A DNA stretch of 53,116 bases from a virus: IMG/VR virus record IMGVR_UViG_3300038321_000021, positions 1-53,116 of that record. One strand, written 5' to 3'. Below, piece after piece: positions 13,621-53,116 of this stretch (its first letter is position 1; the number at the start of each line of letters is the position of its first letter). Made by a program: the position numbers and the translations under genes. The notes beneath the pieces are model-generated. The model ran no database searches, was not told where the DNA came from, and saw only the letters and a list, made by a program, of their open reading frames with translations.

Positions 13621-13647
13621 CATAAAAGAGAGTGTTATTCGTGCGGA
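13621..13647 (-). promoter_or_regulatory. Promoter-like motif, class B (overlaps the 3' end of the upstream ORF)
   Basis: Minus strand CCGCACGAATAACACTCTCTTTTATGG resembles the 12884..12911 instance. Confidence 0.3.
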
Positions 13648-13856: not shown

Positions 13857-13949
13857 AACGAACCCTCCTTATTTCTAACCGGGAATTTCTCACATATCAA
13901 AATAGCATTTTTTATAGTTACCTGCGTGCTGGAAAATAACAAAAAGAAA

Positions 13950-13968
13950 GAGCCCTTGATTAGGACTC
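13950..13968 (-). terminator. Cassette hairpin without an upstream ORF (orphan)
   Basis: Minus strand GAGTCCTAATCAAGGGCTCTTTCTTTTT. The GAG TCC TAA frame has no start codon upstream. Confidence 0.5.
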
Positions 13969-14015
13969 AATCTTGTATAAAGAACCGTAAAATGAGCAAA
14001 TTTATAGCAAAAATG

Positions 14016-14215
14016 ATAAAAATAGCTCTAAAAAAGGCTAAAATAAGAGAAATCGATTCTAAGGCCATTATTAGCCATTCTGAAGAGTTTAACCCCGTTT
14101 ATGACTAATCCATCGCGCACCCCGAAGAACGTGACTTAGAACGCATTTTAAAAGGACTTTTTTCTTAAAAGTTAAAATTTTTCCCATATTACCAGCCTTT
14201 TTGTAATAAAAGATA
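14016..14215. repeat. Non-coding dispersed repeat, copy R2
   Basis: Colinear with 12942..13130 (see R1). Confidence 0.6.
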
Positions 14216-14374
14216 TTAATTTCGCGTTTTATTCAATAACCAGAAAAAACGTCTGTATAATTCGTAGTAAATATCCCTGCAACACGGAATTTCTAATCTA
14301 GCTTTCAAATAATCGTAAGAAACTCCTTTCCATAAATATAACGATGCATATGCAGCTGAAGTAAACTGCTTTCT

Positions 14375-28917: not shown

Positions 28918-29343
28918 TTATCCGACAACCTCTTCCTCAAGTTCCAAACTATTAAGAGTAAAGGTCTTCGTGATGTACACACCATCGAGCGTGGTGATTA
29001 CCCTGATCCGCTGATTCGTATTGGCAATACGGCCGACCCAGACCATATCAGAGTCAAGAGTTACAGGACCAGATGTACCTCCAAGAATCTCAACAGTTGT
29101 CGAGGCTCCTTCGCTATGTTCAAACTTAAGAACAAGGAAATTACCAGACTGCTGTTCCACGTTGCTAGAAAATCCGGTGAAGTCTGTTACGTGATGGAGA
29201 GTACCGTCAATAAAGGTATCATGGACGATAATGCCTGACTGTAAGTCACCAACCGACTTACCTAACCATTCGGCCTCGCTATCTTCAGGCTCAACAACGA
29301 GACTTACTGAAAAGACATTTCGAGAGCGATGGCAGAATAGGGC
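28918..29343 (-). CDS. Capsid C-terminal extension frame. No usable start; probably expressed by a -1 frameshift from the capsid gene.
   Basis: The frame is open from 29343 to 28918. The only start is GTG at 29160, which has no SD and lies in the middle of a continuous domain (...DLQSGIIVHDTFIDGTLHHVTDFTGFSSNVEQQSGNFLVLKF...). The frame overlaps the last 12 capsid codons in the -1 frame. Confidence 0.5.
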   Translation of the reverse strand, partial: ALFCHRSRNVFSVSLVVEPEDSEAEWLGKSVGDLQSGIIVHDTFIDGTLHHVTDFTGFSSNVEQQSGNFLVLKFEHSEGASTTVEILGGTSGPVTLDSDMVWVGRIANTNQRIRVITTLDGVYITKTFTLNSLELEEEVVG

Positions 29344-31016
29344 TTAATCAAAGCACCAGAGCAGCGGGTCTCAATCAGGTACTTTTGAGCATTGTAGTCG
29401 ATATCGAAATCGTCGAACATATTAACGGCTCCACCTTTATCGGCACCGATATTGTAATCGGTCAAGTTGACGATAATACCCATAAGGCCATACGTAGTAC
29501 CATCGTCGACTCTGCTGAGATTTTCCATTACTGGAACAGTTACGATTTCCTTAACGCGAAGAGCGGTAGCAAGCTTCGAAACAGAATCGTAGATAACTCG
29601 ACCAGTGGTGTCTTCCATAAGCAGACAATCGGTAAGAACATCCTCCGTGGTATATAGAGTAGGCTCGCCGGAACCCTTGTAGCTCTTACGGGACTTGATG
29701 GCCGCACGAATAAATGCCTTAGCCTTTTGGTCAGCTGTAGCATCAGCAGCAACAGTTACAGGAGCCTTAATGGTGTATAGATCAGCGTCGGTCCAGATAG
29801 GACGAATATTCTGTTCATTAATCTTGTCATCGGAAGAAGCCAAACGGCCGTCACCGACCAGAGCAGCGCGGGCAATTTCCTCGTCCAGCATCATACGCAT
29901 CTCGGATTTCAGCCATGCGACAACGTCGAAATCTGTGATGTCGACAACGTCGTCACGATCCAGTTTCTGCTTCTTATAAACAGTGGTTGGAGAAGTGGTA
30001 CGCTTTAATAGAGAGAACACTTCTTCCTTCTTGAGTTTACCCTTGATATACCCCTTGGCACGGGCATCTTCCTCGGTGATGTCAGCCAAAATAGACTTGA
30101 TGCGGGAGAACGGGGTGTGGTGGACAGACTTCATGACCTTCTCAACCCAGCCCATATCTCTTTGGATTAACTGCGGGGTGTTGGTAACGTTCTTGGCATC
30201 GGGGAACAAGTAATCGATGTTCTCGATACCGTGGGCAAGGGCACTGTCCTTCAGGCTGCCGTAACGCTTGGCATCAGCAAAGATGGCTTCCATATCGGAA
30301 TGGCTCAGAACATCCTCCTGAATATCTTCCTTGTCAAACACGTTGTGCTTCATATTATTTCCTCCTTTAGAATCGTCATTATTATTGTTATCTTCGGGCT
30401 CTTCTTTTTCCTCAAGAGCCTGCCCGATCATTGCATAAACTACCGTTTTCTGTTTTTCATTAAGAGTATTGAAGACGTCGGCAACGGTTTCCTCGTCCTC
30501 TTTTTTCTCGCTCTTAGACTCTTCTTTCTTGTCCTCGGGTTTGTCCTCCTTCTGATCATCGGCATGATACAGCGCAATGTTCTCACCCGTATAGATGATG
30601 GCTTCCTCATCGGATTCCTCTCCATGTCGAATTACAGCATCGATAAACGCACCGGGGTTCGCGCCTGCCAGAACGAGGCTGATTTCACGAATTGCGCCAT
30701 GAAGCACGCTGAAACCCTGCTGCTTAAGTTGGTTTGCATAGATAGACAGAGCAGACACGTCACCGTGCTCGACCAAAAGCTTAGCGTTCTTGCCGGATTC
30801 CGTTTCGTTGAATTTGCAGTATGCGTAGACACCCTCATCGCGATTCTCAAGCAGTGCGTGCCCAAGAACGTTCAGAGGGTCGTTATGCTGGTGGTTCCAT
30901 ACGAGGGGAACCGTCTGCCCATTGTTATCTTTAAATGCATCTTTCATGATGGTTCTACCATCAGAGCACTTGAGATTATTTCGGGTAGCCCAGCCACTGA
31001 AATCAAATTTCTTCAT
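29304..31016 (-). CDS. Prohead protease (HK97/S78-type) + acidic scaffold-like linker + HK97-fold major capsid protein, fused
   Basis: N-terminal PLVWNHQHNDPLNVLGHA...ALSIYAN...IREISLVLAGANPGAFID. Acidic stretch aa ~145-215. C-terminal capsid-type sequence (...MLDEEIARAALVGDGR...). Confidence 0.8.
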   Translation of the reverse strand: MKKFDFSGWATRNNLKCSDGRTIMKDAFKDNNGQTVPLVWNHQHNDPLNVLGHALLENRDEGVYAYCKFNETESGKNAKLLVEHGDVSALSIYANQLKQQGFSVLHGAIREISLVLAGANPGAFIDAVIRHGEESDEEAIIYTGENIALYHADDQKEDKPEDKKEESKSEKKEDEETVADVFNTLNEKQKTVVYAMIGQALEEKEEPEDNNNNDDSKGGNNMKHNVFDKEDIQEDVLSHSDMEAIFADAKRYGSLKDSALAHGIENIDYLFPDAKNVTNTPQLIQRDMGWVEKVMKSVHHTPFSRIKSILADITEEDARAKGYIKGKLKKEEVFSLLKRTTSPTTVYKKQKLDRDDVVDITDFDVVAWLKSEMRMMLDEEIARAALVGDGRLASSDDKINEQNIRPIWTDADLYTIKAPVTVAADATADQKAKAFIRAAIKSRKSYKGSGEPTLYTTEDVLTDCLLMEDTTGRVIYDSVSKLATALRVKEIVTVPVMENLSRVDDGTTYGLMGIIVNLTDYNIGADKGGAVNMFDDFDIDYNAQKYLIETRCSGALIKPYSAIALEMSFQ

Positions 31017-32296
31017 TTTGAATTTTCCTCCTTCGATTTGTTATTTGCCGTCCCGATCTTTTCTTCAGTCACATCATTCATTGAATCGGTTTTATCTTTT
31101 GACGGCTCACTCAGATTCTTATTCCTAAGCTCGTCCGCTTTCGGATCTTTCGATGGTTTCCAACCGATAACTTGCCGTATTTCATTCGAAGATGCGATCT
31201 CGTTTCGAGTAAACTTATCAGCGATCTCAGAAATCTCATTAACCGGAACAAGTTTGAACGGGTCTCTGAAGAATGAAATCGACTGCAATTGTGACCGAGC
31301 AGTTTTTGTGAGAAACTTTCGTTTCATCTCATCAACAATAGCCGAAAGAATAGGCTCAATCGTCCGGTTGTGGTAATTCAACATTGTCTTGTCGTCCGCA
31401 GTACCATCTAAGATGCTCTGAGTGATCCCCAACTGGCTGTATAGCATACTCGTTAGGTATTCAATCTGCTTCATTAGATTGTTCTCGACGGCACGATTCA
31501 GCTGTGTAATATGCTCAGTACCATCGGTATAAGCAATACCATACTTAGAACCAGCCAATTGATCCTCAATATCTTTACGCCGTTTTTCGGCCTGTTGGCG
31601 TCTTGCTTCTGTCTTGATTACATATGGCAACTGAATAATTAAATCCAACTTACCAGAGCTGCTCTGTTCGTCGACTACGTCTAATAGATTAAGTTTTCGA
31701 ATAAGCCGCTGCATGGTAGAGTTAGGTTCGTTCATAACTGCATACAAGGGATTTTCCACGATAGCCACCATGCTTTTAGGAATCTCAATATCCTCCTTAA
31801 GGCCGGTTTTCTCGTTATATACTCGAACCCTAACGTGATTTGGATACCAATCCAGAATCTTACCAGTTCGCATTGAATTGATATCATAGGAACCAGTAAT
31901 TTCGGGATTAAAGGTTGTGTCGACTGGAACAATAGCCACACATCCTTCATCAAGCATTGACATAACGGCGTCCTGTATAAAGGATCTACCAGTTTGATCA
32001 ATGTTGGCTTCGACGGTGAGGCAGCCGTTCAATCCCGATTCGATGACCGATAGAAAACGATCATTCTCGTCCAGACGAACATGTTGTACATTAATAGCAG
32101 CAGCATCTAAAGCAATGCGGTTATATACTGAAGTTACGATAGATCGCTCATTACCCCTTGTAAGTCTAGGTCTGTCTGGACGATAAGAATGACTAATCCC
32201 AATATCTCTATAGAAACTCGTGGGGTCTTTGTTGAGAAACACATTCCAAGCATGTTTTAGTCTGGAACCAAAAGTCACCTCCATTTTAGTCATCAC
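31013..32296 (-). CDS. Portal protein (start between 32284 and 32296)
   Basis: 427 aa located between TerL and the protease-capsid gene. SD AAAGGAGG. Acidic/basic C-terminal tail. Confidence 0.6.
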   Translation of the reverse strand: MMTKMEVTFGSRLKHAWNVFLNKDPTSFYRDIGISHSYRPDRPRLTRGNERSIVTSVYNRIALDAAAINVQHVRLDENDRFLSVIESGLNGCLTVEANIDQTGRSFIQDAVMSMLDEGCVAIVPVDTTFNPEITGSYDINSMRTGKILDWYPNHVRVRVYNEKTGLKEDIEIPKSMVAIVENPLYAVMNEPNSTMQRLIRKLNLLDVVDEQSSSGKLDLIIQLPYVIKTEARRQQAEKRRKDIEDQLAGSKYGIAYTDGTEHITQLNRAVENNLMKQIEYLTSMLYSQLGITQSILDGTADDKTMLNYHNRTIEPILSAIVDEMKRKFLTKTARSQLQSISFFRDPFKLVPVNEISEIADKFTRNEIASSNEIRQVIGWKPSKDPKADELRNKNLSEPSKDKTDSMNDVTEEKIGTANNKSKEENSK

Positions 32297-32301: not shown

Positions 32302-32760
32302 TTATTTTTCGACTTTATCAACAACGGTACTTCTGTATGCGACCTTACCGGAGTCATAAATTCCGTTTTTTAGTTGGTTCATGTTATAACCTTGATCGGC
32401 AAGGGCCATGAATACTCCAACTTCTCCTCGTTTAGCTACAAATCGCACAACTTTACCAGATGGTGATGTTAAGTCGGAAACTTGTTCGTTCATTAGAGAA
32501 GCCATTTTTTTGTTATAAGAATTAATGGTGGCCGCACTTAGTTTACCTGATTTATTAACAGCGTTTGGGTCTTTCATTAACTCGTTGGCATATTTCATTA
32601 ATTCTTTCGAAGATTTTTTCCTGGCTTTATCTGTTATCTTGTCGGTGTTTTTCTTGACCCATTTGTGATCTTTTTTAGTAAGATTACCGAGCTGGGCTTG
32701 GGTTCTTCGTACACCCCATTTCATTCCGAGAATACCGTGATGGGCCAATCCATTATCCAT
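32302..32760 (-). CDS. HYG-LGMKWGVR leader protein 1
   Basis: MDNGLAHHGILGMKWGVRR followed by a basic Lys-rich body. Sits between TerL and the portal. Confidence 0.75.
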   Translation of the reverse strand: MDNGLAHHGILGMKWGVRRTQAQLGNLTKKDHKWVKKNTDKITDKARKKSSKELMKYANELMKDPNAVNKSGKLSAATINSYNKKMASLMNEQVSDLTSPSGKVVRFVAKRGEVGVFMALADQGYNMNQLKNGIYDSGKVAYRSTVVDKVEK

Positions 32761-32776
32761 ATGCTAATCACCACCT

Positions 32777-34522
32777 TTACTCAAAAGCATCTTTATTAGC
32801 TTTATAAGCGATATAGGCATCCATCATAGCGGCCACAGCATCGATCTTCTGCTCATATCGTTTCTTAAGTAATTTTCGATTTCCGTTCGTGTCTTCGAGT
32901 GTTATACAGTTACCCATGGCGAAAGTCATAAGTTCTTCGTCAAATAAAAGCATCCGCTCCTCAGAAAGTTTCTTTAACTCTCCAAGAGGAACGGATTCTG
33001 TTTTTGCACCCTGTATAACTTTTTCAATACCAAATGGTCCATTTTCGGATTCCCAACGTTCAACAAACTCTTTTGCGTTGTATGGATCAAAGCCGAAACA
33101 TCGCACATCATAACCGCATTCAGTTATATGACTGTCTAAATCCTCATAAACCTGCATCATGTCGAGCACAGTTCCCTCAAGAACGATCAAACTTCCTTCG
33201 TTCATAAATTGGTCATACTTAATTCTCATGGCCGCTGGTAATTTCATTAGTGTTAACGAAGATATGTAGTTTCTGGTTTTGACACCAAAACAACCATTTG
33301 GTAGAGGAAACAGAAATGTAAACGCACAGAAATCATCACCTTGTGAAAGGTCACCACCCAAGGCACAAGGCATTTGCCAAAAGTCTCGTTTCCTATGTTT
33401 GAGGGTTTCTTCATAAGTGAAGTAGTAAGTGTAACCCTCCATGGGAATCCCAAAACGCTTTGCCAAAATATCGTTTCTAGCTGCCGGGGCTTTTTCTGCT
33501 CTTTCGACATCTAGTTGATAAGTTTCATAGCTAACGGTCTTGCCAATATTTGGATTGGCCTTTATCCACATTTCCGGATTAGAAACTTCGTCGATTGAAT
33601 CAAGTTTGTACCACCAAATCGAAACATGAGGATTAATGTAATCACCTTTAAGAATGTCTGATAACTCCATTTTGATTGTATCGCCGCTCCCGTTTCGAAC
33701 AGTACCTTCTGAACTTGTTGCTACAATTAAATAGTCATCAACTTTAGAAGCACCCTGTTCAATAGCGCCAACAACGTCCTCTCGGATGTCTCCGGAAAGC
33801 CATTCATCTACGGTTGCTACTTTTGTTCGGAGACCTTGAAGTTTGGCAATTGACATCGGACGTATCTCTATCAAAGAACCAGTAAGAAAGTTCTCAATAC
33901 CTTTCTTTGTAGAGGCTAACTTCATTCGTTTAGCTTTAGCTCCGGTGGTATTTTGCAACGAACCTTCTGTAAGAAACTTAAACAAAGGACCTCTTGATCG
34001 AGTTATAGCTGTACGAATAGGGGACATTACTTCTTCAGCCTGTTTCATTGTAGGAGCTGTCGTAATCTGATGAGTCGTTGACGTATCAACGTTTTGGAAA
34101 TATGACTGAATGCACGAATCATATAGGGACTTAGCAGCACCTCTTCCAACTATAAGATACTGTTTGTTAATGAGGCGTTTCTTAATGGTCTTCTTTACGT
34201 AGTGTCCACCGTGTCCGTCTGGATTTGGTTCATAAACGCTTCGTTCAACAAAGTAATACCAACCAAAAACTTGTTCACCCCATAACTTAAAGCTATCTAA
34301 CAAATGTAAGTCGCCGCCATCGGTTAAAGTTAATTCAGATTCACAATAATTTATCCATCCTTCAACTGCTTGGTCGTCATAGTAAACTCCGGGGTTAGCA
34401 ATGAGATCGTCGATACGGTTCATCTCCATTGAGATTTCTTTGCATACCGGAATCTCCCCTCGGATAACGGCATCTCGAAACATGCCGTAATATTTTGGAA
34501 CGGCAGTGTTTGATAATGCCAT
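32777..34522 (-). CDS. terL: Terminase large subunit
   Basis: 581 aa. ATPase LIVGRGAAKS plus downstream acidic motifs. C-terminal nuclease region FGFDPYNAKEF typical of Terminase_1-type TerL. Confidence 0.85.
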   Translation of the reverse strand: MALSNTAVPKYYGMFRDAVIRGEIPVCKEISMEMNRIDDLIANPGVYYDDQAVEGWINYCESELTLTDGGDLHLLDSFKLWGEQVFGWYYFVERSVYEPNPDGHGGHYVKKTIKKRLINKQYLIVGRGAAKSLYDSCIQSYFQNVDTSTTHQITTAPTMKQAEEVMSPIRTAITRSRGPLFKFLTEGSLQNTTGAKAKRMKLASTKKGIENFLTGSLIEIRPMSIAKLQGLRTKVATVDEWLSGDIREDVVGAIEQGASKVDDYLIVATSSEGTVRNGSGDTIKMELSDILKGDYINPHVSIWWYKLDSIDEVSNPEMWIKANPNIGKTVSYETYQLDVERAEKAPAARNDILAKRFGIPMEGYTYYFTYEETLKHRKRDFWQMPCALGGDLSQGDDFCAFTFLFPLPNGCFGVKTRNYISSLTLMKLPAAMRIKYDQFMNEGSLIVLEGTVLDMMQVYEDLDSHITECGYDVRCFGFDPYNAKEFVERWESENGPFGIEKVIQGAKTESVPLGELKKLSEERMLLFDEELMTFAMGNCITLEDTNGNRKLLKKRYEQKIDAVAAMMDAYIAYKANKDAFE

Positions 34523-34534
34523 AATTTATTCTCC

Positions 34535-35050
34535 TTATCCCTTAAGTTCTTTAATGGCTAACGCTATAGACAACGCAGAACCCGTTAAAGCAAGTGTAGT
34601 CCCAGCAACATCTAATGTTTTTTTGGTAAAATCTCGCCCCTTTGAAATACTCGGTGCGATTTCGGGTGCAAACAAAGTATTATACTGTTTCTCTAAAAGC
34701 TCACGATTGATGCGGTCACGCATTTCTTTATCCGTCATTTTAGATAGGTCCATTTTTTGTTTAGTGGATCTCGGACGAGTTTCTTTTTCTATATTTCGCA
34801 TTTGTTTAACTAGATCAGAACTTGTATCGACTGTTCTTTTTTTGCGTTCTATGTCTTCTTTAACCCACCGTTTCGGATCGGGTTTACTGGTATCTATCCT
34901 AGAATCTTTTTTTTTAGATAGATTAGTTTGAATATCTCGATCATAACGTTTTTTACCAGTTGGTGTAAGAGTTCCGTCTTTGTTCTGGTAACGTCTTACA
35001 CCCCATTTCATACCGAGGACACCGTAATGTTTTAGTTCGTTATTATTCAT
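34535..35050 (-). CDS. HYG-LGMKWGVR leader protein 2 (basic, C-terminal hydrophobic segment)
   Basis: Start set to MNNNELKHYGVLGMKWGVRR behind SD GAGGAGGAAATTCAAA. C-terminus VAGTTLALTGSALSIALAI. Confidence 0.75.
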   Translation of the reverse strand: MNNNELKHYGVLGMKWGVRRYQNKDGTLTPTGKKRYDRDIQTNLSKKKDSRIDTSKPDPKRWVKEDIERKKRTVDTSSDLVKQMRNIEKETRPRSTKQKMDLSKMTDKEMRDRINRELLEKQYNTLFAPEIAPSISKGRDFTKKTLDVAGTTLALTGSALSIALAIKELKG

Positions 35051-35411
35051 TTTGAATTTCCTCCTCTTCAATTGTTTTTACAGGATCCGCCGCAACTTGA
35101 ATTCTCCATTCAAGCTCTGATATAATTCGGTTTGTAGACTCGATCACAGCGGAAATAAGAGGAGGATCGAAAAGAAGCTTGACCTTCATATACACATAGG
35201 ACTTTACTAATTCCAATCTTGAATTAGATGGAATAAAATCCGTCCATACTGAAGACTTGTCTTCGATCGAAAAACCTTCGGAGGGACCGACACCAATCTG
35301 AGTTAAAATCGATAGCACAGAATTGATGTGCATAGTTAAGTCCGCATCGAAGTGTGTATACTCTTCCGCAATTCCGAGCATCTTCTTAATTGATGTCAGT
35401 ATACTCTCCAT
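35043..35411 (-). CDS. Conserved phage protein (head-tail connector / packaging-associated family candidate)
   Basis: 122 aa. LGIAEEYTHFDADLTMHINSVLSILTQIGVGP...LLFDPP pattern seen in many Firmicute phages (recollection). Function not established. Confidence 0.4.
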   Translation of the reverse strand: MESILTSIKKMLGIAEEYTHFDADLTMHINSVLSILTQIGVGPSEGFSIEDKSSVWTDFIPSNSRLELVKSYVYMKVKLLFDPPLISAVIESTNRIISELEWRIQVAADPVKTIEEEEIQNE

Positions 35412-35423
35412 AGTAATCCTCCT

Positions 35424-35690
35424 TTACGATTGAATTGCGATAAACTTTTTCATACAGAATCCCTCAATACCAGAGGCCGTATAGACTTTATAAAATTCTT
35501 CGGTTGATTCGTTTTCATCAATCATAAGCTCGGTCTGGTAAACAACTTCGCAGACGATAGGAGCGTCCACTGCGGGTCTTTCACGAATATTGAGTTTCTT
35601 ACAGTCCGCTACAAGACCAATTTTAATTTCTTCCGGCTCGTCATGGCTTTCGGATTCATATGTAGTGTTGAACGTATCATCCTGGTACAT
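35424..35690 (-). CDS. SH3b-like domain protein
   Basis: LNIRERPAVDAPIVCEVVYQTELMI...FYKVYTASGIEGFCMKKFI fits the bacterial SH3 pattern. Confidence 0.5.
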   Translation of the reverse strand: MYQDDTFNTTYESESHDEPEEIKIGLVADCKKLNIRERPAVDAPIVCEVVYQTELMIDENESTEEFYKVYTASGIEGFCMKKFIAIQS

Positions 35691-35706
35691 TTATCGCTTC
35701 CTCCTT

Positions 35707-36141
35707 TTATTTATGCCTCCATGGGCAGGTATCATTTTTAGTTCGCTCAATCGGAGCTTTAATCAACAGATTTTCGTCGCCATAGTGAATTGCGTTATGA
35801 GTTGGATGAGTGGTAGAGATTAAGTATTCTGGATTTAACAGAAACCCGCTTTGAGTCACGATGTCTTTTGGCAGAATCGGATTCATGTGATGTATATAAA
35901 TCTTTCCTCTAATCTCATAACCTTCAATGCCAAGGTCACAACCGTTATCTCTCACAATCACAAAATCGCGAACGGCTTTCCATTCAGGCGACTTATAAAA
36001 GTTCTGGTTAATGAATCTATCAAATCCAAATGTCTCTTCTCCAACAGCTCCATTGAGTTTTAGATATTGGTATCGTTCCTCAAATGTTTGTAACTTGGAT
36101 AGTTCTGAATATGTCCTAATCATCTGAGTCACCTTGTCCAC
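35707..36141 (-). CDS. Packaging-associated HNH endonuclease
   Basis: VRDNGCDLGIEGYEIRGKIYIHHMNPI...THPTHNAIHYG. Position upstream of the terminase. Confidence 0.8.
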   Translation of the reverse strand: MDKVTQMIRTYSELSKLQTFEERYQYLKLNGAVGEETFGFDRFINQNFYKSPEWKAVRDFVIVRDNGCDLGIEGYEIRGKIYIHHMNPILPKDIVTQSGFLLNPEYLISTTHPTHNAIHYGDENLLIKAPIERTKNDTCPWRHK

Positions 36142-36451
36142 TATAGTTTCTCATAGCGTCAAGAGCATTTGTATAAAGCTCTTCAATTCTTTGCGCCGAC
36201 TGTAACGATTGTGTTTTTGCTTCAATCAACTCTTTCTGTTTCTCGAGAATTTCCTTTTCGATTTTCTCTTTGGTTGAGCCAAGCTTTAAGTAATGTGTGA
36301 TGACCTGAGAAGAAGCAGTTCCTTCTAATAACTGTTTCTCAGCAAGGTCCACGGCCAAGGACACTAGCTGATTCTCCCTGGCTTCCGGAGATAAAGCCGG
36401 TCTCATCTTTCTCGAAGAATCATAAGAGGTTACAGCCTTAGCTTTCTTCAT
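36116..36451 (-). CDS. Putative small terminase subunit / packaging accessory protein
   Basis: 111 aa, helical. LAEKQLLEGTASSQVITHYLKLGS motif. The call rests on position and size only. Confidence 0.35.
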   Translation of the reverse strand: MKKAKAVTSYDSSRKMRPALSPEARENQLVSLAVDLAEKQLLEGTASSQVITHYLKLGSTKEKIEKEILEKQKELIEAKTQSLQSAQRIEELYTNALDAMRNYSGQGDSDD

Positions 36452-36491
36452 CCTTACTGCCTCCTCTCGATTAAATATGATTTGGTTATGA

Positions 36492-37154
36492 TTATGTTTG
36501 TCTTTTTAGTTCCCGTATACTTTGTCGGGTTACTGGTTTTATTGAAATTACTTCCAGACTATCTTGTCGGTCGAATATGATGGACGGAACACGAGATATA
36601 ATTCCGGCATCGGCATCATCGATCATCATGTTATAACCTAAATCGGAAAGACTTTTTAAATATTTTTCTCTAACTTCGGAATTCGATGCCACTCCCAATG
36701 CTAATGAATTTTTATATAATCGAGCCTTTTCGTCATAGGTTTTAAGTTGATCTATTTTAGCTTTGATTTTATCTGGGGATGAAAAAACATTATACTGAGC
36801 TTCCGAGTTAGCTAATGCTTTTTTAAAATCATCATCGGAGTCAAGAAGTTTTATGAATTCATCAACTCTAACTTTCATCGAAGGAGCGACTAGATCTTTA
36901 GTTACTTTAAAAGTCATATTATATGCCGCTTGATTGAATGCGCTTCCTCTACGCATATATCCAAGAGCATCTTTTTTATCTATCGAAACAAAAGCATGTC
37001 CTTCTTTGTTTTTTTCAGAATCTGTAGCCGCCGTTCTATAAATCGTTGCTCCTTTTTTTATAGTGAAACCGTCTTTTCGAGATCCGATTTTATCCGCTTT
37101 TCTAACTCCCCACTTCATACCAAGGACTCCGTAGTGGGTTAATTCATTATCCAT
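36492..37154 (-). CDS. HYG-LGMKWGVR leader protein 3
   Basis: Start set to MDNELTHYGVLGMKWGVRK behind SD GAGGAGG. The track N-terminus (TTG at 37301) has no SD and a non-coding look. Confidence 0.75.
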   Translation of the reverse strand: MDNELTHYGVLGMKWGVRKADKIGSRKDGFTIKKGATIYRTAATDSEKNKEGHAFVSIDKKDALGYMRRGSAFNQAAYNMTFKVTKDLVAPSMKVRVDEFIKLLDSDDDFKKALANSEAQYNVFSSPDKIKAKIDQLKTYDEKARLYKNSLALGVASNSEVREKYLKSLSDLGYNMMIDDADAGIISRVPSIIFDRQDSLEVISIKPVTRQSIRELKRQT

Positions 37155-37351
37155 AATAATTACTGCCTCCTCTCGGTTAAATATTGTATGGTTCTCGTAT
37201 TGTTTCATGGGGGTTACATATAGTTTTGCATAGCATTTAAAAGAACTCACAAAGCCGACTAAAACCTTTTGAAAGGAGAATGAAAGAAATGAAGAAGTCA
37301 ACCTTGTGAGCTCTTTTAAATGCCATGCTGAGTAAACGCTTTCCTAAATAT

Positions 37352-37417
37352 CACCCCCGGGGAATTTTTAATGAGGGCGGCGATGACGGAGGGGGTGCGA
37401 TTTTTGCGACACCCCCC
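37352..37417. other. GC-rich palindromic / hairpin element (cos/pac candidate)
   Basis: CACCCCCGGGG (contains the 8-bp palindrome CCCCGGGG), then GGGCGGCGATGACGGA, then the hairpin GGGGGTGCGatttttGCGACACCCCC. All of this sits in an otherwise AT-rich 484-bp intergenic region upstream of the packaging genes. Confidence 0.35.
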
Positions 37418-37482
37418 TATATGTTCCGTCACCAAGAGCCGCAAACGTCTCGTCTTTGGAAATCTTCTAGAACAATCATTTA

Positions 37483-37690
37483 TTTCTAAAATAATTTCCG
37501 TTTAAACGAATGAAAAATAGTATGCGTTTAGGTACTTGCCGCTTGTCTTGCCGCCTTCTTATAGATGTTTCTAAAATAATTTCCGTTTAAACGAATGATA
37601 AATAGTATGCGTTTAAACGAATGATAAATAGTATGCGTTTAGGTACTTGCCGCTTGTCTTACCACCTTCTTATAGATGTTTCTAAAATCG
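37483..37690. repeat. Tandem duplication (85-bp unit x ~2.3, with a nested 26-bp unit x3)
   Basis: The unit starting TTTCTAAAATAATTTCCGTTTAAACGAATGA recurs at 37483 and 37568, and partially at 37679. The 26-mer GTTTAAACGAATGAWAAATAGTATGC occurs at 37500, 37585 and 37611. Each unit includes a copy of the last ~45 nt of CDS 37639..37890. Confidence 0.85.
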
Positions 37691-37890
37691 TATTTAATAA
37701 TTTCATCAATTGCTCTTTCAACTTCCAAATCGTTTTCTTCTTCTGATAATTGATCTGAAGTTCGAGCAATTCTTCCTAAGTAAGCACAAGAATCATAACC
37801 TTTTTCTACATCGAACAGGAACCAGGAAGTGAACTGTTCAAATGGATCGTAGGGGTTATCAAATGTTGTTAACATACATCTGCTTTTCAT
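37639..37890 (-). CDS. Hypothetical conserved small protein
   Basis: 83 aa. LTTFDNPYDPFEQFTSWFLFD...GY pattern. SD AAAGGAG. Confidence 0.65.
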   Translation of the reverse strand: MKSRCMLTTFDNPYDPFEQFTSWFLFDVEKGYDSCAYLGRIARTSDQLSEEENDLEVERAIDEIIKYDFRNIYKKVVRQAAST

Positions 37891-37897
37891 AATCAGA

Positions 37898-40747
37898 TCA
37901 CTCCTTTCCTTTCAAGTATTTTAATACTGTGGTCGACGATACACCAAGAGCATTGGCTATGTCTTTAGTTGTGTAACCAGAAGCTTTCATAGATGCAATT
38001 CGATTAATCTTAGCTGTGCTCAAAGAATTAGTGGTTCTCGGTGTGGCTCGCTGTCTAAGATCATCTATATCGACGTTATTGAGAATCTGGGTAAGTCTGT
38101 TTTCACTAATAGCACCGGCTTGAATAGCTTCCCATTCACGGTCAGATATTGTAACGGGTAACCTCTTGGCACCGACAATAGCCCGCGCCTTAGTTAACTC
38201 TTGTTGACCGAGTTTCTTTATTTCATTACGAGTTATGTCAGGGTTAGCCTGCTTTTTAGCATTGATGGCGGCATTAGCCATCAACTGGGCCTGTCTCTCA
38301 CGAGGTGCGTTTTTAAGGGCCACGTTAAGCTGGGACATAAGGTGGTCTACTTCTTCTTGATAAACTTTTTTAGCAGAGGAGGAGTACTCTATATTACCAG
38401 CCGTAACCATCTCCTTACGAGCCTGGTTGCCTAGGGCCTTCATCCGGTTGGCATATTCAGCGTAAACTCTTTCTGCCGGGGTGTTAGCGTCGGATACTAG
38501 TGTAAAGGCGTCGTCGGTTTCGGCCATCTTGGTAGATTGCTGTGTTCTAGTTTTTACTTTTCCTGTTTTGTCCACATATGTTTCCGCTGGTTTGTAAACG
38601 TAAGCACTTTTTGGTAAGGTTGGATCATACCAATCTTTATCCGCCTTATTGGCGACTCTATTGTATAGTAGAGCTCCTTCAGGACGAGTTGGATCGTACC
38701 AAGCCTTGTCTTTTGTATTAATTTTTGGACTGCCTGTTACTTTTAGTCTTGGTTCTTGTGATTTAGCTCTCGAGATTAAAGTAGCTGCTCCTTCTCTGTA
38801 TCGACCCTCTTTGTCATAGCTACCTTGATATTTTTTCTTAAGAGACGTTATATTGTTGTCAATCTCACTTTGTTTATAATCCAATTTATGTTTTTCAGCA
38901 TCGATAACCACCATGCTATGACGAACAGCTTTTGCTAATTCGTCTTGAGTGGCTCCTCTTAAAGTCATATCCGTAATTAGATTCGAAGCTTTACCCATTT
39001 CGGTTTGAGTATTACTCATAACCTTAATTTTTTTACCGTGACTATTATAATATTGGTCTCCTTTTTTTACAGTGCCGTAGCTCATTTTTGGGTCAAAATC
39101 ATCCAACCCATGTTTCGGGTCCATTCTAGTAGATGTGATTTTAACTTTACCCCCAGTGGGGATGACCATAACGGTATCACCATCAAAGTCGGCGCCAGAT
39201 AAACGATTAGCAACTTTACTGTTAATTCCGATAGCATCCGCTGGAGTGTTTCCTAAAATCCTCCGAGCTTCTGCTTGTTTATTATTAACGGTTAAGATTG
39301 GAATTTCAAACGTTCCACCATGAGGAAATCGTATCAAAGCAACTTGTTCCCCCGGTTCGAAGTTAGGAGCATAAACTTCGTTGTCTTTCATAGAGGTGAT
39401 AGGAAGTATTACCTGATACCTCTGACGGGGAAGGGCTGCCGCTTGTAGATGAATAGCCGCTGAATCGCAATCATCCGAAAACTTTTTTAACAAAACTTTC
39501 TTCAGCGTCGGATTCGGAAGTGACATAATTTCATCAAACTCTGCTTGTTTGTCGGCCGATGCTAGGTTGAGCTGTTTTTCTATCAAAGTTTTACTCTGTT
39601 TGGAAAGAAACTGAGAGGGAAGATTTTTGCTCCATTCGTCCCAATCGCCTTCTTCGGCTCTTTTATTGATTAAAGATAGTTGACGTTTCCCATCCTTGTC
39701 GATGTAATAACTTTGACCTCCTGCTTTAATTAGAGAACCGAAAGGATTGTCTGGATCTTTTTCAATGTTCTTTAGCACGTCACCTTTAGGAGTTCCTTGT
39801 TTTTTGTTGGTATTAAAAATAGCATCAACTCCATCTGGCATATTATCGGAGTATACAGCCATTCCTTTTATATATTTATTATCATCCACTAGAATACGAA
39901 CTTGTGCGTAGTGGGAGTTTCCTAAAGAAAGATCATCTACTCCTCTTCGAATCTCGACTACGCCATCTTTGTCATTTCCGCCTTCTTCCGCATAACGAAT
40001 CTTAATACGATTAGAATCCATACTCTTCGGATAGACAAAGGTATCAAAAGTGTCACCACCATCATGGGAAATATAATCTCGAAGAGAATGCACATTTTCG
40101 AGATTATAGATTTCTTTATGCTCGGTTCCCGGAGGACAGAGAACTTGGATATTAGTTTGTTTTCCGGGGTTTGTAACTTGGGGAACGCCGCCGCCATATA
40201 GTTCGTAACCCTCCATCTCTAAAATATAAAGAGCTTGTTTCATTTTTTCTCTAGAAATATTACCCAGCTCTCGTTCAACACCAACGCCAACATCGATCAT
40301 TCCTTTAGTGTCTACTTGTTCTTTGAGAAAATCGGCTACTTTTTTAGCTTGGTTCATACGGGCTTCGGAATTCTCATTTAACAAAGAGCGTACAGACGAA
40401 TCATTTTTATAACCCATCTTTTCAGCAATCTCATTCAGACTGTATCCTTTTTCTCGCAAACCTTTTGCAGTGTCAACTTGTAGCGACCTTCGCTCTGCGT
40501 TTGCTAAACTCACTTGTGTCCTAAATTGAGTCGAATCCAATCCCATAGATTTAGCAATTGCCATGTCGCCTTTCCAGGTCTTGCCGTCGTCATCTGTAAA
40601 AGTGAAGTTTTCTTTTCGAAGTTCATCCACACGACTCAAAAAATCACCGCTACGTTGAAAAGGGTTTTCGCCAGAACCCCAAGGATAACGCCCAGAACGT
40701 TTTGGCATACCATAATGTTTTAAAATATCTTCAGCAATGGGATTCAT
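37898..40747 (-). CDS. Single-polypeptide two-barrel DNA-dependent RNA polymerase (YonO-like) with N- and C-terminal HTH-like segments
   Basis: Beta-like barrel motif KYIKGMAVYSDNMPDGVDAIFNTN (aa 291-314). Beta-prime-like VALIRFPHGGTFEIPILTV...AIGINSKVANRLSGADFDGDTVMVIP (aa 468-530; ADFDGD codons at 39176..39193). HTH-like GYSLNEIAEKMGYKNDSSVRSLL and GYTTKDIANALGVSSTTVLKYLKG. Confidence 0.75.
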   Translation of the reverse strand: MNPIAEDILKHYGMPKRSGRYPWGSGENPFQRSGDFLSRVDELRKENFTFTDDDGKTWKGDMAIAKSMGLDSTQFRTQVSLANAERRSLQVDTAKGLREKGYSLNEIAEKMGYKNDSSVRSLLNENSEARMNQAKKVADFLKEQVDTKGMIDVGVGVERELGNISREKMKQALYILEMEGYELYGGGVPQVTNPGKQTNIQVLCPPGTEHKEIYNLENVHSLRDYISHDGGDTFDTFVYPKSMDSNRIKIRYAEEGGNDKDGVVEIRRGVDDLSLGNSHYAQVRILVDDNKYIKGMAVYSDNMPDGVDAIFNTNKKQGTPKGDVLKNIEKDPDNPFGSLIKAGGQSYYIDKDGKRQLSLINKRAEEGDWDEWSKNLPSQFLSKQSKTLIEKQLNLASADKQAEFDEIMSLPNPTLKKVLLKKFSDDCDSAAIHLQAAALPRQRYQVILPITSMKDNEVYAPNFEPGEQVALIRFPHGGTFEIPILTVNNKQAEARRILGNTPADAIGINSKVANRLSGADFDGDTVMVIPTGGKVKITSTRMDPKHGLDDFDPKMSYGTVKKGDQYYNSHGKKIKVMSNTQTEMGKASNLITDMTLRGATQDELAKAVRHSMVVIDAEKHKLDYKQSEIDNNITSLKKKYQGSYDKEGRYREGAATLISRAKSQEPRLKVTGSPKINTKDKAWYDPTRPEGALLYNRVANKADKDWYDPTLPKSAYVYKPAETYVDKTGKVKTRTQQSTKMAETDDAFTLVSDANTPAERVYAEYANRMKALGNQARKEMVTAGNIEYSSSAKKVYQEEVDHLMSQLNVALKNAPRERQAQLMANAAINAKKQANPDITRNEIKKLGQQELTKARAIVGAKRLPVTISDREWEAIQAGAISENRLTQILNNVDIDDLRQRATPRTTNSLSTAKINRIASMKASGYTTKDIANALGVSSTTVLKYLKGKE

Positions 40748-42415: not shown

Positions 42416-42438
42416 AATTAATTCCTCCTTTATTATTA

Positions 42439-42469
42439 GTTTCCATAACAGGAGGTGTATGTTTAGCGC
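42439..42469 (-). promoter_or_regulatory. Promoter-like motif, class A
   Basis: Minus strand GCGCTAAACATACACCTCCTGTTATGGAAAC. Confidence 0.5.
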
Positions 42470-42477
42470 AAAAAGAA

Positions 42478-42494
42478 GAGGGGATGAACCCCTC
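42478..42494 (-). terminator. Cassette-position hairpin, different stem sequence
   Basis: Minus strand GAGGGGTTCATCCCCTC followed by TTCTTTTT. Confidence 0.5.
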
Positions 42495-42638
42495 ATTTTG
42501 ATATCCATATGACTGATGTTAAATCATCCATTATATCAATTTGATAAGTATCTCCTCTATCTTCTAAAAATTTGGTTGCTATTTCCTTCGTTGCAAAAGG
42601 TACTTCCATTCCATCTTTAAAAAATGCTCCATAGCTTT

Positions 42639-42827: not shown

Positions 42828-42851
42828 GATTTTTCTCCTTTCAAAAATATA

Positions 42852-42881
42852 GTTTCCATAATAGAGTATGTTATTATTGCG
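42852..42881 (-). promoter_or_regulatory. Promoter-like motif, class A (degenerate)
   Basis: Minus strand CGCAATAATAACATACTCTATTATGGAAAC. Confidence 0.4.
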
Positions 42882-42908
42882 TAAAAAATCACATAAAAAT
42901 AAAAGAAA

Positions 42909-42927
42909 GAGCCCTTGTTAGAGGCTC
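42909..42927 (-). terminator. Cassette hairpin variant plus T-run
   Basis: Minus strand GAGCCTCTAACAAGGGCTCTTTCTTTT. Confidence 0.5.
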
Positions 42928-42934
42928 AATCTTT

Positions 42935-43147: not shown

Positions 43148-43179
43148 TTTCTTTTCTCCTTTCAAAATATAAAAAGAAA

Positions 43180-43197
43180 GAGTCCTTGTTCGGACTC
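43180..43197 (-). terminator. Cassette hairpin plus T-run
   Basis: Minus strand GAGTCCGAACAAGGACTCTTTCTTTTT. Overlaps the TGA of 43196..43393. Confidence 0.6.
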
Positions 43198-43393
43198 AAA
43201 TTCTTTTACCATTATTAAATTTAGATTTGATTTTTTCAACAATCATTTCTCGATTACTGACAATATAACTTCCACCTATCAGAACCGCATAAACTGCCAC
43301 ATTAAGGATAATAATTTCCTTTCTATGTATTTTATTAAATTCTTTTCTAGGTTCCTTTACCATTGTTTTATAATCCTGAAACATTTCTTTCAT
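43196..43393 (-). CDS. Small membrane protein (65 aa)
   Basis: TM IIILNVAVYAVLIGGSYIV. SD AAAGGAGGAAATGAAAA. Confidence 0.6.
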   Translation of the reverse strand: MKEMFQDYKTMVKEPRKEFNKIHRKEIIILNVAVYAVLIGGSYIVSNREMIVEKIKSKFNNGKRI

Positions 43394-43408: not shown

Positions 43409-43438
43409 TTTAATAGTGGTTTCCATAATAGGAGGTGT
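43409..43438 (-). promoter_or_regulatory. Promoter-like motif, class A (consensus instance)
   Basis: Minus strand CGCGAAAATTACACCTCCTATTATGGAAAC, directly after hairpin 43459..43477. Confidence 0.5.
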
Positions 43439-43458
43439 AATTTTCGCGTAAAAAGAAA

Positions 43459-43477
43459 GAGCCCTTGTTTAGGACTC
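43459..43477 (-). terminator. Cassette hairpin plus T-run
   Basis: Minus strand GAGTCCTAAACAAGGGCTCTTTCTTTTT. Contains the stop of 43469..43753. Confidence 0.6.
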
Positions 43478-43753
43478 CTCCTTTTTTGTTTTAATACTTT
43501 TTTTAATAAGTAAAAAACTAATAACAGCGATTACTCCCGAAATGCAACCAACTGTAAGATATTTGTTTTTAGTAAAATTAGATCCTGTTTGGTAATCCAA
43601 CGACACGACCTCGATTAAATTATCTCTAGCTGTACCAACTATTTTAGTACCATCTAAATTTTTACAATCGAAATCCACCGCTGCCTCCGCTAGTTCTCTA
43701 AACTTACTGCCATCCAAGTTGCTTGCAAATTTTCTAAATTTTTTCTCTGTCAT
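43469..43753 (-). CDS. Small protein with C-terminal TM anchor (94 aa)
   Basis: Start set to MTEKKFRKF behind SD GAAAGGAGAAAATGAG. TM VGCISGVIAVISFLLI. Ends ...KKEES with the stop in the hairpin. Confidence 0.6.
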   Translation of the reverse strand: MTEKKFRKFASNLDGSKFRELAEAAVDFDCKNLDGTKIVGTARDNLIEVVSLDYQTGSNFTKNKYLTVGCISGVIAVISFLLIKKSIKTKKEES

Positions 43754-43778
43754 CTCATTTTCTCCTTTCAAAAATATA

Positions 43779-43808
43779 GTTTCCATAACAGGAGGTGTAA
43801 TGTTAGCG
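43779..43808 (-). promoter_or_regulatory. Promoter-like motif, class A
   Basis: Minus strand CGCTAACATTACACCTCCTGTTATGGAAAC. Confidence 0.5.
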
Positions 43809-43868
43809 TATACATAAATATAACCCACGATTGTTATCCAAAAGCGGGTTATAAATATGTACTTATCG

Positions 43869-46039: not shown

Positions 46040-46088
46040 ATTGAGTTAATGTTCCTTTCCATGTATATATTTTTTTTAGAAAAAGAAA

Positions 46089-46107
46089 GAGCCCTTGTTC
46101 AGGACTC
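46089..46107 (-). terminator. Cassette hairpin plus T-run
   Basis: Minus strand GAGTCCTGAACAAGGGCTCTTTCTTTTT. Contains the TGA stop of 46099..46263. Confidence 0.6.
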
Positions 46108-46263
46108 CTCTTTTAATTGTTTAAGATTTTTGTTCATCCTCCTATAAAAATTGTAGTTACTAATGAGTATATCTCCTAAATCTTTAATGTACGTCACAGC
46201 CTTAATTACCAGATAAAATGGTAAATAAACCAAACCTACCATAAAATATAAGAAATTTTTCAT
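46099..46263 (-). CDS. Small membrane protein (54 aa), not in supplied track
   Basis: MKNFLYFMVGLVYLPFYLVIKAV...LKQLKEES. SD AAAGGAGGATTTTACA. Confidence 0.55.
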   Translation of the reverse strand: MKNFLYFMVGLVYLPFYLVIKAVTYIKDLGDILISNYNFYRRMNKNLKQLKEES

Positions 46264-46289
46264 TGTAAAATCCTCCTTTAATATTATGG

Positions 46290-46319
46290 GTTTCCATAAT
46301 AGGAGGTGTAATTTTCGCG
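46290..46319 (-). promoter_or_regulatory. Promoter-like motif, class A (consensus instance)
   Basis: Minus strand CGCGAAAATTACACCTCCTATTATGGAAAC. Confidence 0.5.
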
Positions 46320-46329
46320 CAGATAATGA

Positions 46330-46617
46330 TTATGAATTTATCCATTCGTAGTACTTCATACCACCTATAACTCCTAAAGTTGGAGCCAGCATTTCAGCGG
46401 CAGTTTTACTCCCAGTGATACCATATACCGCACCTGAGCCAAAACCACTACTAAATAAACCAGCCGCAACTGAAGCTCCTACCTTTAGTATCTTTTCGTT
46501 TCTAGAAGCTCGTTCCTGTTTGGTTTTTGTTGTTCTTTTAGAAGTCGAGGTCCCTCGATCTTTACGAACTCCCCACTTCATTCCTAGCACGCCATAATGT
46601 CTCAATTCGTTATTCAT
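46330..46617 (-). CDS. HYG-LGMKWGVR leader protein 4 (basic linker, Gly-rich hydrophobic C-terminus)
   Basis: Start set to MNNELRHYGVLGMKWGVRK behind SD GGAGGTTTATATT. C-terminus VGASVAAGLFSSGFGSGAVYGI...LGVIGGM. Confidence 0.7.
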   Translation of the reverse strand: MNNELRHYGVLGMKWGVRKDRGTSTSKRTTKTKQERASRNEKILKVGASVAAGLFSSGFGSGAVYGITGSKTAAEMLAPTLGVIGGMKYYEWINS

Positions 46618-50106: not shown

Positions 50107-50137
50107 TATTTTTTCTCCTTTCAAATATAAAAAGAAA

Positions 50138-50155
50138 GAGCCCTTGTTAGGACTC
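50138..50155 (-). terminator. Cassette hairpin plus T-run
   Basis: Minus strand GAGTCCTAACAAGGGCTCTTTCTTTTT. Contains the stop of 50147..50368. Confidence 0.6.
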
Positions 50156-50368
50156 AGTCTCTTTTCGTAATTTGATGCCATGCTTTAAGTCTTCTAAAAG
50201 CACACTTGTTAATTCATACATCGCATCATTGAGATGACCAACATACTCAATTCCGTTTGGGTCTAAAGCCTCCCAAACAGCTACGTCGTTAATCCTTTCC
50301 TCAACTTTAGTAATTTTATAAATCGCCAGTGCTACTTTCTTTCGCTCGCCTTTTGTCATATTTATCAA
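50147..50368 (-). CDS. Small hypothetical protein (73 aa)
   Basis: SD GAAAGGAGATTGATAAAT. Ends ...RKETES with the stop in the hairpin. Confidence 0.6.
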   Translation of the reverse strand: MINMTKGERKKVALAIYKITKVEERINDVAVWEALDPNGIEYVGHLNDAMYELTSVLLEDLKHGIKLRKETES

Positions 50369-50373
50369 TCTCC

Positions 50374-50401
50374 TTTCATAATATGAGGTGTTTTTTTCGC
50401 G
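50374..50401 (-). promoter_or_regulatory. Promoter-like motif, class B
   Basis: Minus strand CGCGAAAAAAACACCTCATATTATGAAA, immediately after the helicase stop. Confidence 0.4.
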
Positions 50402-52653: not shown

Positions 52654-53116
52654 TTAGAAAGGAAGCTCTTCAGGTCCTTCCTCTTTGGCATACTTAGCCG
52701 CGAACTCGTCCTCCTCGATGGTTACATACATTGTCCTTAGATAGGCCTTAACTCCAGTCTTACCGTTGACTTCCCAGTTATAAGGTCTTATAGTCAAATC
52801 CACATTACGGATTTCAGCGAAGTCTAGAGTATCAATAGATTCATCATCCAGCGGAGTTTGTGAACGCCTCGTAACCATAATTACTTTAGGCGGAATATTA
52901 GCGAAACTAACTGCGACCTGAATATAATGTGTTGCATCGTCACCCTCGTCACGGGGAGCCAGAATTCTCACATTCCAACCATCTTCAGCCAATTTCTGGG
53001 CTTGTTCAGGGTCATCGATAATAACACAAAAGTTACGATTACCCTCTCGATTGTACTTTGTTTCCTTTCCCGCAAAGTTGCGGAATATAATACGAGCGTT
53101 CTCAATGATAATGTTA
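52654..53116 (-). CDS. gp2.5-like single-stranded DNA-binding protein candidate. 5'-truncated by the window end; the first 20 nt are at 119..100.
   Basis: In-frame continuation across the 99-nt closure repeat. Beta-rich body. Acidic C-terminal tail ending in an aromatic residue (EEGPEELPF), as in T7 gp2.5. Sits between the polymerase and the DHH/helicase genes. Confidence 0.5.
53018..53116. repeat. Terminal direct repeat, copy 2 (identical to 1..99)
   Basis: Exact match to the window start. Confidence 0.9.

Follow-up and report, generated by a model that had tools for sequence, protein, structure and literature searches.

A short peptide module, DUF7211, shared by unrelated phage proteins beside the terminase and portal genes: a candidate virion-loading tag

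We analysed a 53,116-nucleotide (nt) stretch of viral DNA, positions 1 to 53,116 of IMG/VR record IMGVR_UViG_3300038321_000021 (the window). Four of its open reading frames (ORFs), here called orf152, orf171, orf220 and orf95, begin with nearly the same peptide, the tag, and a diverged version of it stands near the N-terminus of the RNA polymerase encoded in the window. A preliminary description of this DNA had placed the feature at 32302-40747, a span that holds three of the carriers and the polymerase, while the fourth carrier lies outside it. Parts of the packaging and virion machinery were identified with Pfam (TerL, portal, a fused S78 protease-HK97 capsid protein, a connector and a tape measure protein). 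The carriers, the polymerase and the genes of the packaging module are as follows.

32302-32760, minus strand: tag carrier orf152, 152 residues, tag at residues 1-19 (nt 32704-32760); sits between TerL and the portal gene
34535-35050, minus strand: tag carrier orf171, 171 residues, tag at residues 1-20 (nt 34991-35050); directly upstream of TerL
36492-37154, minus strand: tag carrier orf220, 220 residues, tag at residues 1-19 (nt 37098-37154)
46330-46617, minus strand: tag carrier orf95, 95 residues, tag at residues 1-19 (nt 46561-46617)
37898-40747, minus strand: YonO/RdRP-like RNA polymerase (RdRP, RNA-dependent RNA polymerase), 949 residues, with an ADFDGD motif and helix-turn-helix (HTH) domains at both ends
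32777-34522, minus strand: TerL (Pfam TerL_nuclease, E 6e-33, and TerL_ATPase), with a tag carrier on each side
31013-32296, minus strand: portal (Pfam Phage_portal, E 4.6e-14), a candidate docking partner
29304-31016, minus strand: fused S78 prohead protease, acidic linker and HK97-type major capsid protein (Peptidase_S78, E 9.1e-7; Phage_capsid, E 6.3e-5)
35043-35411, minus strand: head-tail connector (Pfam Phage_connect_2, E 7.6e-40), in the same operon
35424-35690, minus strand: SH3_3-domain protein, 88 residues, in the packaging module between an HNH-like gene and the connector

The N-termini of orf152, orf171, orf220 and orf95 all read M-x-N-x-L-x-H-[HY]-G-[VI]-L-G-M-K-W-G-V-R-[RK]. Thirteen of the first ~19 residues are invariant across the four, and a Shine-Dalgarno sequence lies upstream of each ATG that puts the tag at residue 1 (4/4 ORFs). 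The near-identical leaders reported earlier were thus recovered at their positions on the minus strand. The accompanying claim, that the proteins diverge completely after the leader, was borne out as well: with the tag removed, pairwise comparison of the four window proteins gave no match with a BLASTP E<0.1 or more than 5 bits in phmmer. All four proteins are net basic. The coding pattern for GMKWG occurs in 5 copies in the window, against 0.01 expected. The fifth copy, GQDIVDGMKWGILS at 19331-19344 on the minus strand, lies inside the tape measure gene (18766-24420) and lacks the HYG half. A look through 102 long ORFs from related loci showed no such site, and we rejected this copy as a further tag; it is probably due to chance.

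We compared the DNA that encodes the four tags. Mean column identity is 69%, and the differences fall largely at third codon or synonymous positions, which indicates that selection acts on the tag peptide. This bears on the idea that the repeat is a DNA-level 5' cassette boundary for recombinational swapping of the downstream genes, with a functionless peptide. Neighbouring genes do have tags at their 5' ends and vary strongly further downstream. However, near-identical peptides encoded by DNA that is only 69% identical, with mostly synonymous differences, fit such a boundary poorly, and the peptide is conserved across hosts of very different G+C content; we regard this explanation as scarcely credible. 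The shared tag is a real feature that is not due to chance and that defines a phage lineage, as the distribution given below makes plain.

All four ORFs match Pfam PF23847 (DUF7211), with scores of 38.8, 42.1, 43.3 and 40.5 bits for orf152, orf171, orf220 and orf95, respectively. The DUF7211 model covers 25 positions, has a gathering threshold of 27 bits and is labelled by Pfam a 'family of unknown function'; the threshold was passed by every carrier that we examined in relatives. The preliminary description had known no described function for the motif. Its function is indeed unexplained, but the family itself had already been catalogued. About fifteen different PHROG families are matched by the window carriers through the tag alone. 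A literature search found no paper on DUF7211, and searches with the motif strings returned nothing relevant (one unrelated neurology case report). Papers on the related phages (clusters AM and AU, Giantsbane and the Faecalibacterium phages) mention neither the motif nor any virion proteomics.

In relatives the tag follows the consensus [DN]-E-L-x-H-[HY]-G-[IV]-[LK]-G-[MQ]-K-W-G-V-R-R, and in about two-thirds of 216 copies it is extended after W-G-V-R-R by YQNxDG[TS]LTxAGKKRY. Of 227 tags in IMG/VR loci, about 95% fall inside the first ~45 residues of the reading frame. The earlier term 'N-terminal leader' therefore describes most copies but is too narrow, since tags also occur internally and in 2-5 copies per polypeptide. 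In ReqiPoco6 gp015 (L002 14111-15727) a 2H/LigT-type phosphoesterase domain comes first, and an internal tag follows at residues 330-352. Some phage enzymes that break down cyclic-nucleotide immune signals share the 2H fold. In Lactococcus phage 1706 the tag pattern is confined to one gene, ORF7, which has two copies. The best database matches carry 2-5 tags per polypeptide in proteins of up to 1,569 residues, and in the polyprotein-like carriers P0122 (1335 residues), P0141 (1569 residues), P0124 and P0134, 4-5 tags are interspersed with GNAT or glutamine-deamidase domains. Because of these internal and repeated copies, a cleaved N-terminal 'leader' can be at most part of the story.

The multi-tag proteins raise the question of whether the motif is mainly a recognition or processing site of the S78 prohead protease, marking cuts in polyproteins and precursors rather than targeting them. 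Many of the best database matches have two to five tags where modules meet, 1706 ORF7 has its two, and all relatives examined have the protease joined to the capsid protein, a fusion also reported for clusters AM and AU (PMC5513430). Known prohead-protease sites are, however, only a few residues long, whereas the conserved block here spans 20-35 residues. Furthermore, the protease acts inside the procapsid, where its substrates must first arrive, so that processing would supplement targeting and not replace it. We consider a pure processing site unlikely.

Two of the window carriers represent widespread types. Orf171 (DUF7211 E 5.5e-11; also matching phrog_32444, 7021 and 24711) has an extended form of the tag, ...GVRRYQNKDGTLTPTGKKRY, that reaches residue 36; a basic linker and a helix come next, and the C-terminal segment is hydrophobic, rich in Gly and Ala and membrane-like. 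Homologues of the orf171 type, with similarity beyond the tag, are present in 73/79 IMG/VR loci, and orf171 is a core carrier type of the lineage. It occupies a position equivalent to that of 1706 ORF7. Pairwise BLAST of these two proteins found similarity in the tags only; a relation beyond the tag is drawn from the match of both to phrog_7021. Orf152 (DUF7211 E 6.2e-10) has homologues in 61/79 of the loci and is the second core carrier type; its homologues are at least 87% identical, among the matches listed. Orf220 (DUF7211 E 2.3e-11; phrog_7502, E 2.4e-27) was found full-length by tblastn in 112 actinophage records, and the cargo part is conserved among phages of Arthrobacter, Gordonia, Streptomyces and Rhodococcus. 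Orf95 (DUF7211 E 1.7e-10) continues after the tag with a basic stretch and a hydrophobic tail rich in Gly. The cargo of the window carriers themselves gave no NCBIfam matches and no informative Pfam matches.

The cargo behind the tag is very diverse. When 214 post-tag sequences were clustered, they fell into 88 clusters, 71 of them singletons; the orf171 and orf152 types are near-universal and the rest are mostly singletons. Pfam identified GNAT acetyltransferases, Gln_amidase (papain-fold toxin 1), Ntox50, DUF6883, DUF5662 and DUF6582 among the cargo; Ntox50 and Gln_amidase were seen in relatives only and in none of the four window proteins. Annotations of carriers in isolate phages include acetyltransferase, phosphoesterase and RNA ligase, and in one related locus (L008) a GNAT carrier lies between TerL and the portal gene. 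The preliminary description had asked whether the leader might be an integral part of an enzymatic fold. The tag precedes at least 88 unrelated cargo families and thus is not part of one fold.

It had also asked whether the leader might be a lipoprotein or secretion signal. An export, membrane or envelope signal (Sec, Tat, lipoprotein, type VII or holin-like) would be in keeping with the twin arginine after the tag core, with the hydrophobic segment found in 51/214 carriers (near the C-terminus in 32 of these) and with the type VII secretion of Firmicutes and Actinobacteria hosts. However, a scan of the 214 carriers found no 19-residue hydrophobic window that begins within the first 30 residues, and the carrier sequences show neither a lipobox nor a WXG/LXG helical domain. 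A related motif on an HTH-bearing polymerase also makes export implausible. This is the only rival that the sequences directly contradict, and we hold it to be very improbable.

The polymerase carries its diverged tag, EDILKHYGMPKRSGRYPWGSGENP, at residues 5-29 (nt 40661-40735). The 949-residue protein has the DxDGD catalytic loop and the family-level similarity of the YonO/crAss-like (RdRP-related) single-chain polymerases: it matches phrog_4291 with E 0, shows a weak, below-threshold match to a Pfam RdRP family (E 0.0018), and matched the family described in bioRxiv 10.1101/842583 with an HHpred probability of 95.7%. A sequence search for a related solved structure found none. Eleven homologues, from phages of both Firmicutes and Actinobacteria, share the N-terminal pattern [DE]-x-L-x-H-Y-G-x-x-R-x-S-G-R-Y-P-W-G-S-G-x-N-P-x-Q, in which the H, G, SGR, W and G are invariant. 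Alignment of the tag profile with this N-terminus by hhalign gave a probability of 88.6% (E 2.7e-6) over 20 columns with a 4-residue insertion. DUF7211 was absent among the best 25 of 28 Pfam families found on the polymerase at E<=1; the polymerase variant falls outside the Pfam model and its link to the tag comes from profile-profile comparison only. In ReqiPoco6, where the tags read DNFLAHYGVKGMKWG and the polymerase DDYLAHYGILRRSGRYPWG, the polymerase prefix tracks the tags of the same phage. The earlier observation that the polymerase begins with a related version of the leader is upheld by the motif invariant in the 11 homologues and by the profile alignment, and at the level of sequence the relation of the polymerase N-terminus to the tag is shown.

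The homologues of this polymerase define a group described in bioRxiv 10.1101/842583, which takes in Lactococcus 1706-like, Faecalibacterium Oengus, Arthrobacter AM/AU, Gordonia DJ, Streptomyces BI and Rhodococcus Pepy6/Poco6 phages, and the 949-residue enzyme is the signature enzyme of the lineage. We searched 50,697 phage genomes by tblastn with a 29-residue tag and found it in 239 records at 832 places; the polymerase was found in 250-251 records. Records with the tag and with the polymerase were equal in number for phages of Arthrobacter (95/95), Gordonia (55/55), Streptomyces (54/54), Curtobacterium (7/7), Microbacterium (4/4), Rhodococcus (4/4) and Faecalibacterium (2/2). These results show that the tag is exclusive to one phage lineage, that of 1706, Oengus and the Arthrobacter, Gordonia, Streptomyces and Rhodococcus phages.

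The same association held in loci from metagenomes and from cellular genomes. In IMG/VR, 441 tag stretches were confirmed, and 79 loci were kept, with 227 tags in 221 ORFs, mostly 2-4 per locus. These loci were fetched through the tag, and neighbours were scored within 10 kb: TerL of the window type was found in 71/79 loci, the portal in 63, the protease-capsid fusion in 56 and the polymerase in 34. Between TerL and the portal gene lie 106 of the tags; another 41 stand directly upstream of TerL, a further 47 are up to 6 kb upstream of it, and every tag that was scored is on the TerL strand (203/203). In GTDB, with one genome per species, 234 tag stretches were confirmed, mostly in Clostridia and on phage-sized contigs; the 40 loci of at least 15 kb had the window-type TerL in 40, the portal in 37, the fusion in 37 and the polymerase in 34. 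A profile of the four window tags matched 32,852 representative proteins at E<=0.001 among 1.84 billion. In all three collections the tag was found only with the TerL-portal-protease/capsid module.

That the genome encodes an HK97-type prohead protease, as noted earlier, was established by Pfam Peptidase_S78, and the protease domain proved to be fused to the capsid protein. The fusion is a candidate docking partner for the tag and a possible processing enzyme. At residues ~222-270, between the acidic linker and the capsid domain, it has the conserved pattern MKHNVF...[DE]xVLSHS...ALxHGIxNID; the '[DE]xVLSHS' part loosely resembles the '[DE]xLxH' start of the tag, and we gave this likeness no weight. 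By megablast, the TerL DNA (32777-34522) shares 71-72% identity with Gordonia cluster DJ phages along ~1.7 kb, an unusually high nucleotide conservation between a phage of ~40% G+C and phages of Actinobacteria.

The evidence on virions themselves is the deposited annotation of one phage, 1706. In GenBank EU081845 the depositors annotated ORF7, the tag carrier, as 'structural protein', and ORF75, the polymerase homologue, is annotated in the same way. The records of ReqiPoco6 and ReqiPepy6 repeat this structural annotation by similarity. The 1706 paper (Garneau et al. 2008, Virology 373:298) is reported to have identified structural proteins by sodium dodecyl sulfate-polyacrylamide gel electrophoresis and liquid chromatography-tandem mass spectrometry.

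Tags within a genome agree with each other at variable positions more than tags across genomes do (0.54 vs 0.38 and 0.70 vs 0.44), and 0/500 permutations reached the observed values. Such concerted evolution fits a shared, genome-specific partner. One form that this could take is an assembly motif acting in the infected cell, by which accessory proteins join the polymerase, each other or a transcription/replication factory through one shared partner or through tag-tag pairing. The related motif on the polymerase, the place of orf95 among non-structural genes and the tags' evolution in concert all agree with such a motif. On the other hand, the genes for tagged proteins are nearly all placed in the TerL-portal morphogenesis cluster and on its strand, toxin domains of the kind usual in delivered effectors are present among the cargo, and 1706 ORF7 is annotated as a structural protein. 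An intracellular assembly motif is in our estimate rather unlikely, though not far-fetched.

The explanation that we favour, with somewhat better than even confidence, is that DUF7211 is a portable module of ~20-35 residues that marks proteins for loading into the procapsid or virion. It is the best available reading of the sequences and has independent circumstantial support. We arrive at it because the tag is tied to the packaging and capsid module, is found in the morphogenesis operon and on a changing set of enzymes and toxins, and has a diverged copy on a polymerase that is annotated as structural. The preliminary description had proposed a capsid-targeting or ejection tag. Lineage and module exclusivity, the position in the morphogenesis operon, the toxin and effector cargo and the 1706 annotations speak for that proposal, whereas its cleavage by the S78 protease is unsupported and its restriction to N-termini does not stand.

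In outline, the tag would dock on a conserved internal component, either the portal or a scaffold-like linker together with the inner face of the protease-capsid fusion. Proteins that bear the tag would be packed into the assembling procapsid, the S78 protease might remove the tag, and the proteins would leave the virion with the DNA at infection. Orf171 and orf152 are probably ejection or pilot-type proteins, and orf220 and orf95 would be further cargo. Since the polymerase carries a diverged copy of the module, it would also be virion-borne.

Several observations weigh against virion loading. The orf95 gene lies away from the structural module, among non-structural genes. Two small, untagged proteins of 1706 encoded among replication genes, ORF62 (L007 1053-1331) and ORF71 (L007 5659-6012), are also annotated as 'structural protein', so that co-purification is possible or other routes into the virion exist. 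The likeness of tags within a genome could also be explained by gene conversion or recent duplication. Tag-only ORFs of 34-40 residues (P0046, P0094, P0097, P0098 and P0078) occur on contigs of 49-59 kb, and the best-scoring matches listed in a search with the extended-leader profile were short fragments and tag-only ORFs. In locus L008 a tag-only ORF at 8001-8105 is followed 90 nt later by an acetyltransferase fragment (8195-8581), which suggests a disrupted or recoded tag-cargo gene. Finally, the AlphaFold2 models are too poor to inform on the structure of the tag: mean predicted local distance difference test (pLDDT) was 53.8 for orf152, with tag residues 1-15 below 50 (from an alignment of 36 sequences that was nonetheless shallow), and 61.2 for orf171, modelled from a single sequence, with the tag again below 50.

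The rest of the window was annotated in the same analysis. Its ends, 1-99 and 53018-53116, are 100% identical over 99 nt, which indicates a complete, circularly closed assembly with a unit of 53,017 bp. All called genes are on the minus strand, and no tRNA genes were found in the window. A motif of ~30 nt, ACGCGAAAATTACACCTCCTATTATGGAAA, occurs at 13 minus-strand sites upstream of small genes and is confined to two non-structural regions. It could be a promoter of the sigma-A type (TTTACG, 16 nt, TATTAT) with an additional conserved CGC...ACA, or a promoter used by the phage polymerase. Hairpins that are nearly identical to one another, GAGTCCTAACAAGGGCTC, each with a T-run after it on the coding strand, stand just before the promoter-like motif, and the two elements frame the small genes as promoter-gene-terminator cassettes. 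Repeats are also present at 37489-37688, in the gap between orf220 and the small ORF after the polymerase gene, with a tandem 26-nt unit at 37584-37641. The cohesive genome end of ReqiPoco6 lies at the equivalent place, and 37489-37688 may therefore be a cos or packaging region.

9617-9680, 11673-11736, 12645-12708, 12864-12927, 13598-13661 and 14190-14253, minus strand: promoter-like motif ACGCGAAAATTACACCTCCTATTATGGAAA
41637-41700, 42432-42495, 42845-42908, 43412-43475, 43772-43835, 46283-46346 and 50365-50428, minus strand: promoter-like motif ACGCGAAAATTACACCTCCTATTATGGAAA
12683-12715, 13942-13974, 42901-42933, 43172-43204, 43451-43483, 46081-46113 and 50129-50161: examples of hairpin GAGTCCTAACAAGGGCTC

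Known systems offer partial parallels to virion loading by a short tag. The capsid targeting sequence (CTS) of phage T4 is likewise a short N-terminal peptide shared by unrelated proteins. It has ~10-19 residues, targets the scaffolding core and is cut by gp21 at L/I-x-E; its carriers, IPI-III and Alt, end up in the head and are injected, and the cargo includes enzymes that act on the host. The CTS was reportedly worked out by Mullaney and Black in the 1990s. DUF7211 has no sequence similarity to it and, unlike the CTS, can be internal or repeated; moreover, it belongs to siphoviruses that infect Gram-positive hosts, have the protease fused to the capsid protein and lack a separate scaffold gene. 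The cargo-loading peptides of encapsulins are a second parallel, short conserved peptides on diverse cargo that dock inside an HK97-fold shell. They are usually C-terminal and have another motif, and binding of DUF7211 to the capsid is a hypothesis. By analogy, DUF7211 would work most like the T4 CTS and the encapsulin peptides, while being a member of neither class.

Two further systems resemble the cargo rather than the tag. The MuF polymorphic toxins of temperate phages carry variable toxins, including Ntox50, on the head protein MuF (Jamet et al. 2017, PMC5576092). Like the DUF7211 carriers, they combine a constant head-associated module with variable toxin domains and are encoded beside the portal and terminase genes. 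The constant part is, however, a MuF/SPP1 gp7 domain of ~250 residues in one case and a peptide of 20-35 residues in the other, and none of the window carriers, 88 representative carriers and 7 multi-tag proteins searched gave a match to MuF (Phage_Mu_F). Virion RNA polymerases that are carried in the particle and injected are described for N4-like, crAss-like and P23-45 phages (PMC10770324; bioRxiv 10.1101/2020.03.07.982082). A DxDGD-type catalytic loop is common to the crAss-like, P23-45 and YonO groups and to the window polymerase. The known virion polymerases are giant or fused to the tape measure protein, whereas the window enzyme is a free-standing protein of 949 residues that would rely on a small shared tag, and its presence in virions is indicated by the 1706 annotation only.

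A broader form of the proposal, to which we give a little less than even confidence, is that DUF7211 is a general, transferable encapsidation signal that loads arbitrary cargo into HK97-fold capsids for co-injection with the DNA in a very large siphovirus lineage of Firmicutes and Actinobacteria, the cargo including a YonO-like polymerase, polymorphic-toxin and anti-host enzymes and membrane-active pilot proteins. Such a signal would be the first outside T4-like and jumbo myoviruses, with a mechanism like encapsulin cargo loading. If tagged proteins are indeed loaded into virions, a very large orphan family (32,852 representative proteins) would gain a function, and there would be an explanation for the odd genes that crowd the terminase and portal region of many phages from gut, dairy and soil. 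The tag would also provide a small, sequence-defined handle with which chosen proteins could be loaded into phage particles of Gram-positive hosts. The whole lineage would then send an RNA polymerase of its own into the host, together with a varying set of effector enzymes, and hundreds of SEA-PHAGES isolates would begin infection with an injected polymerase that they themselves encode.

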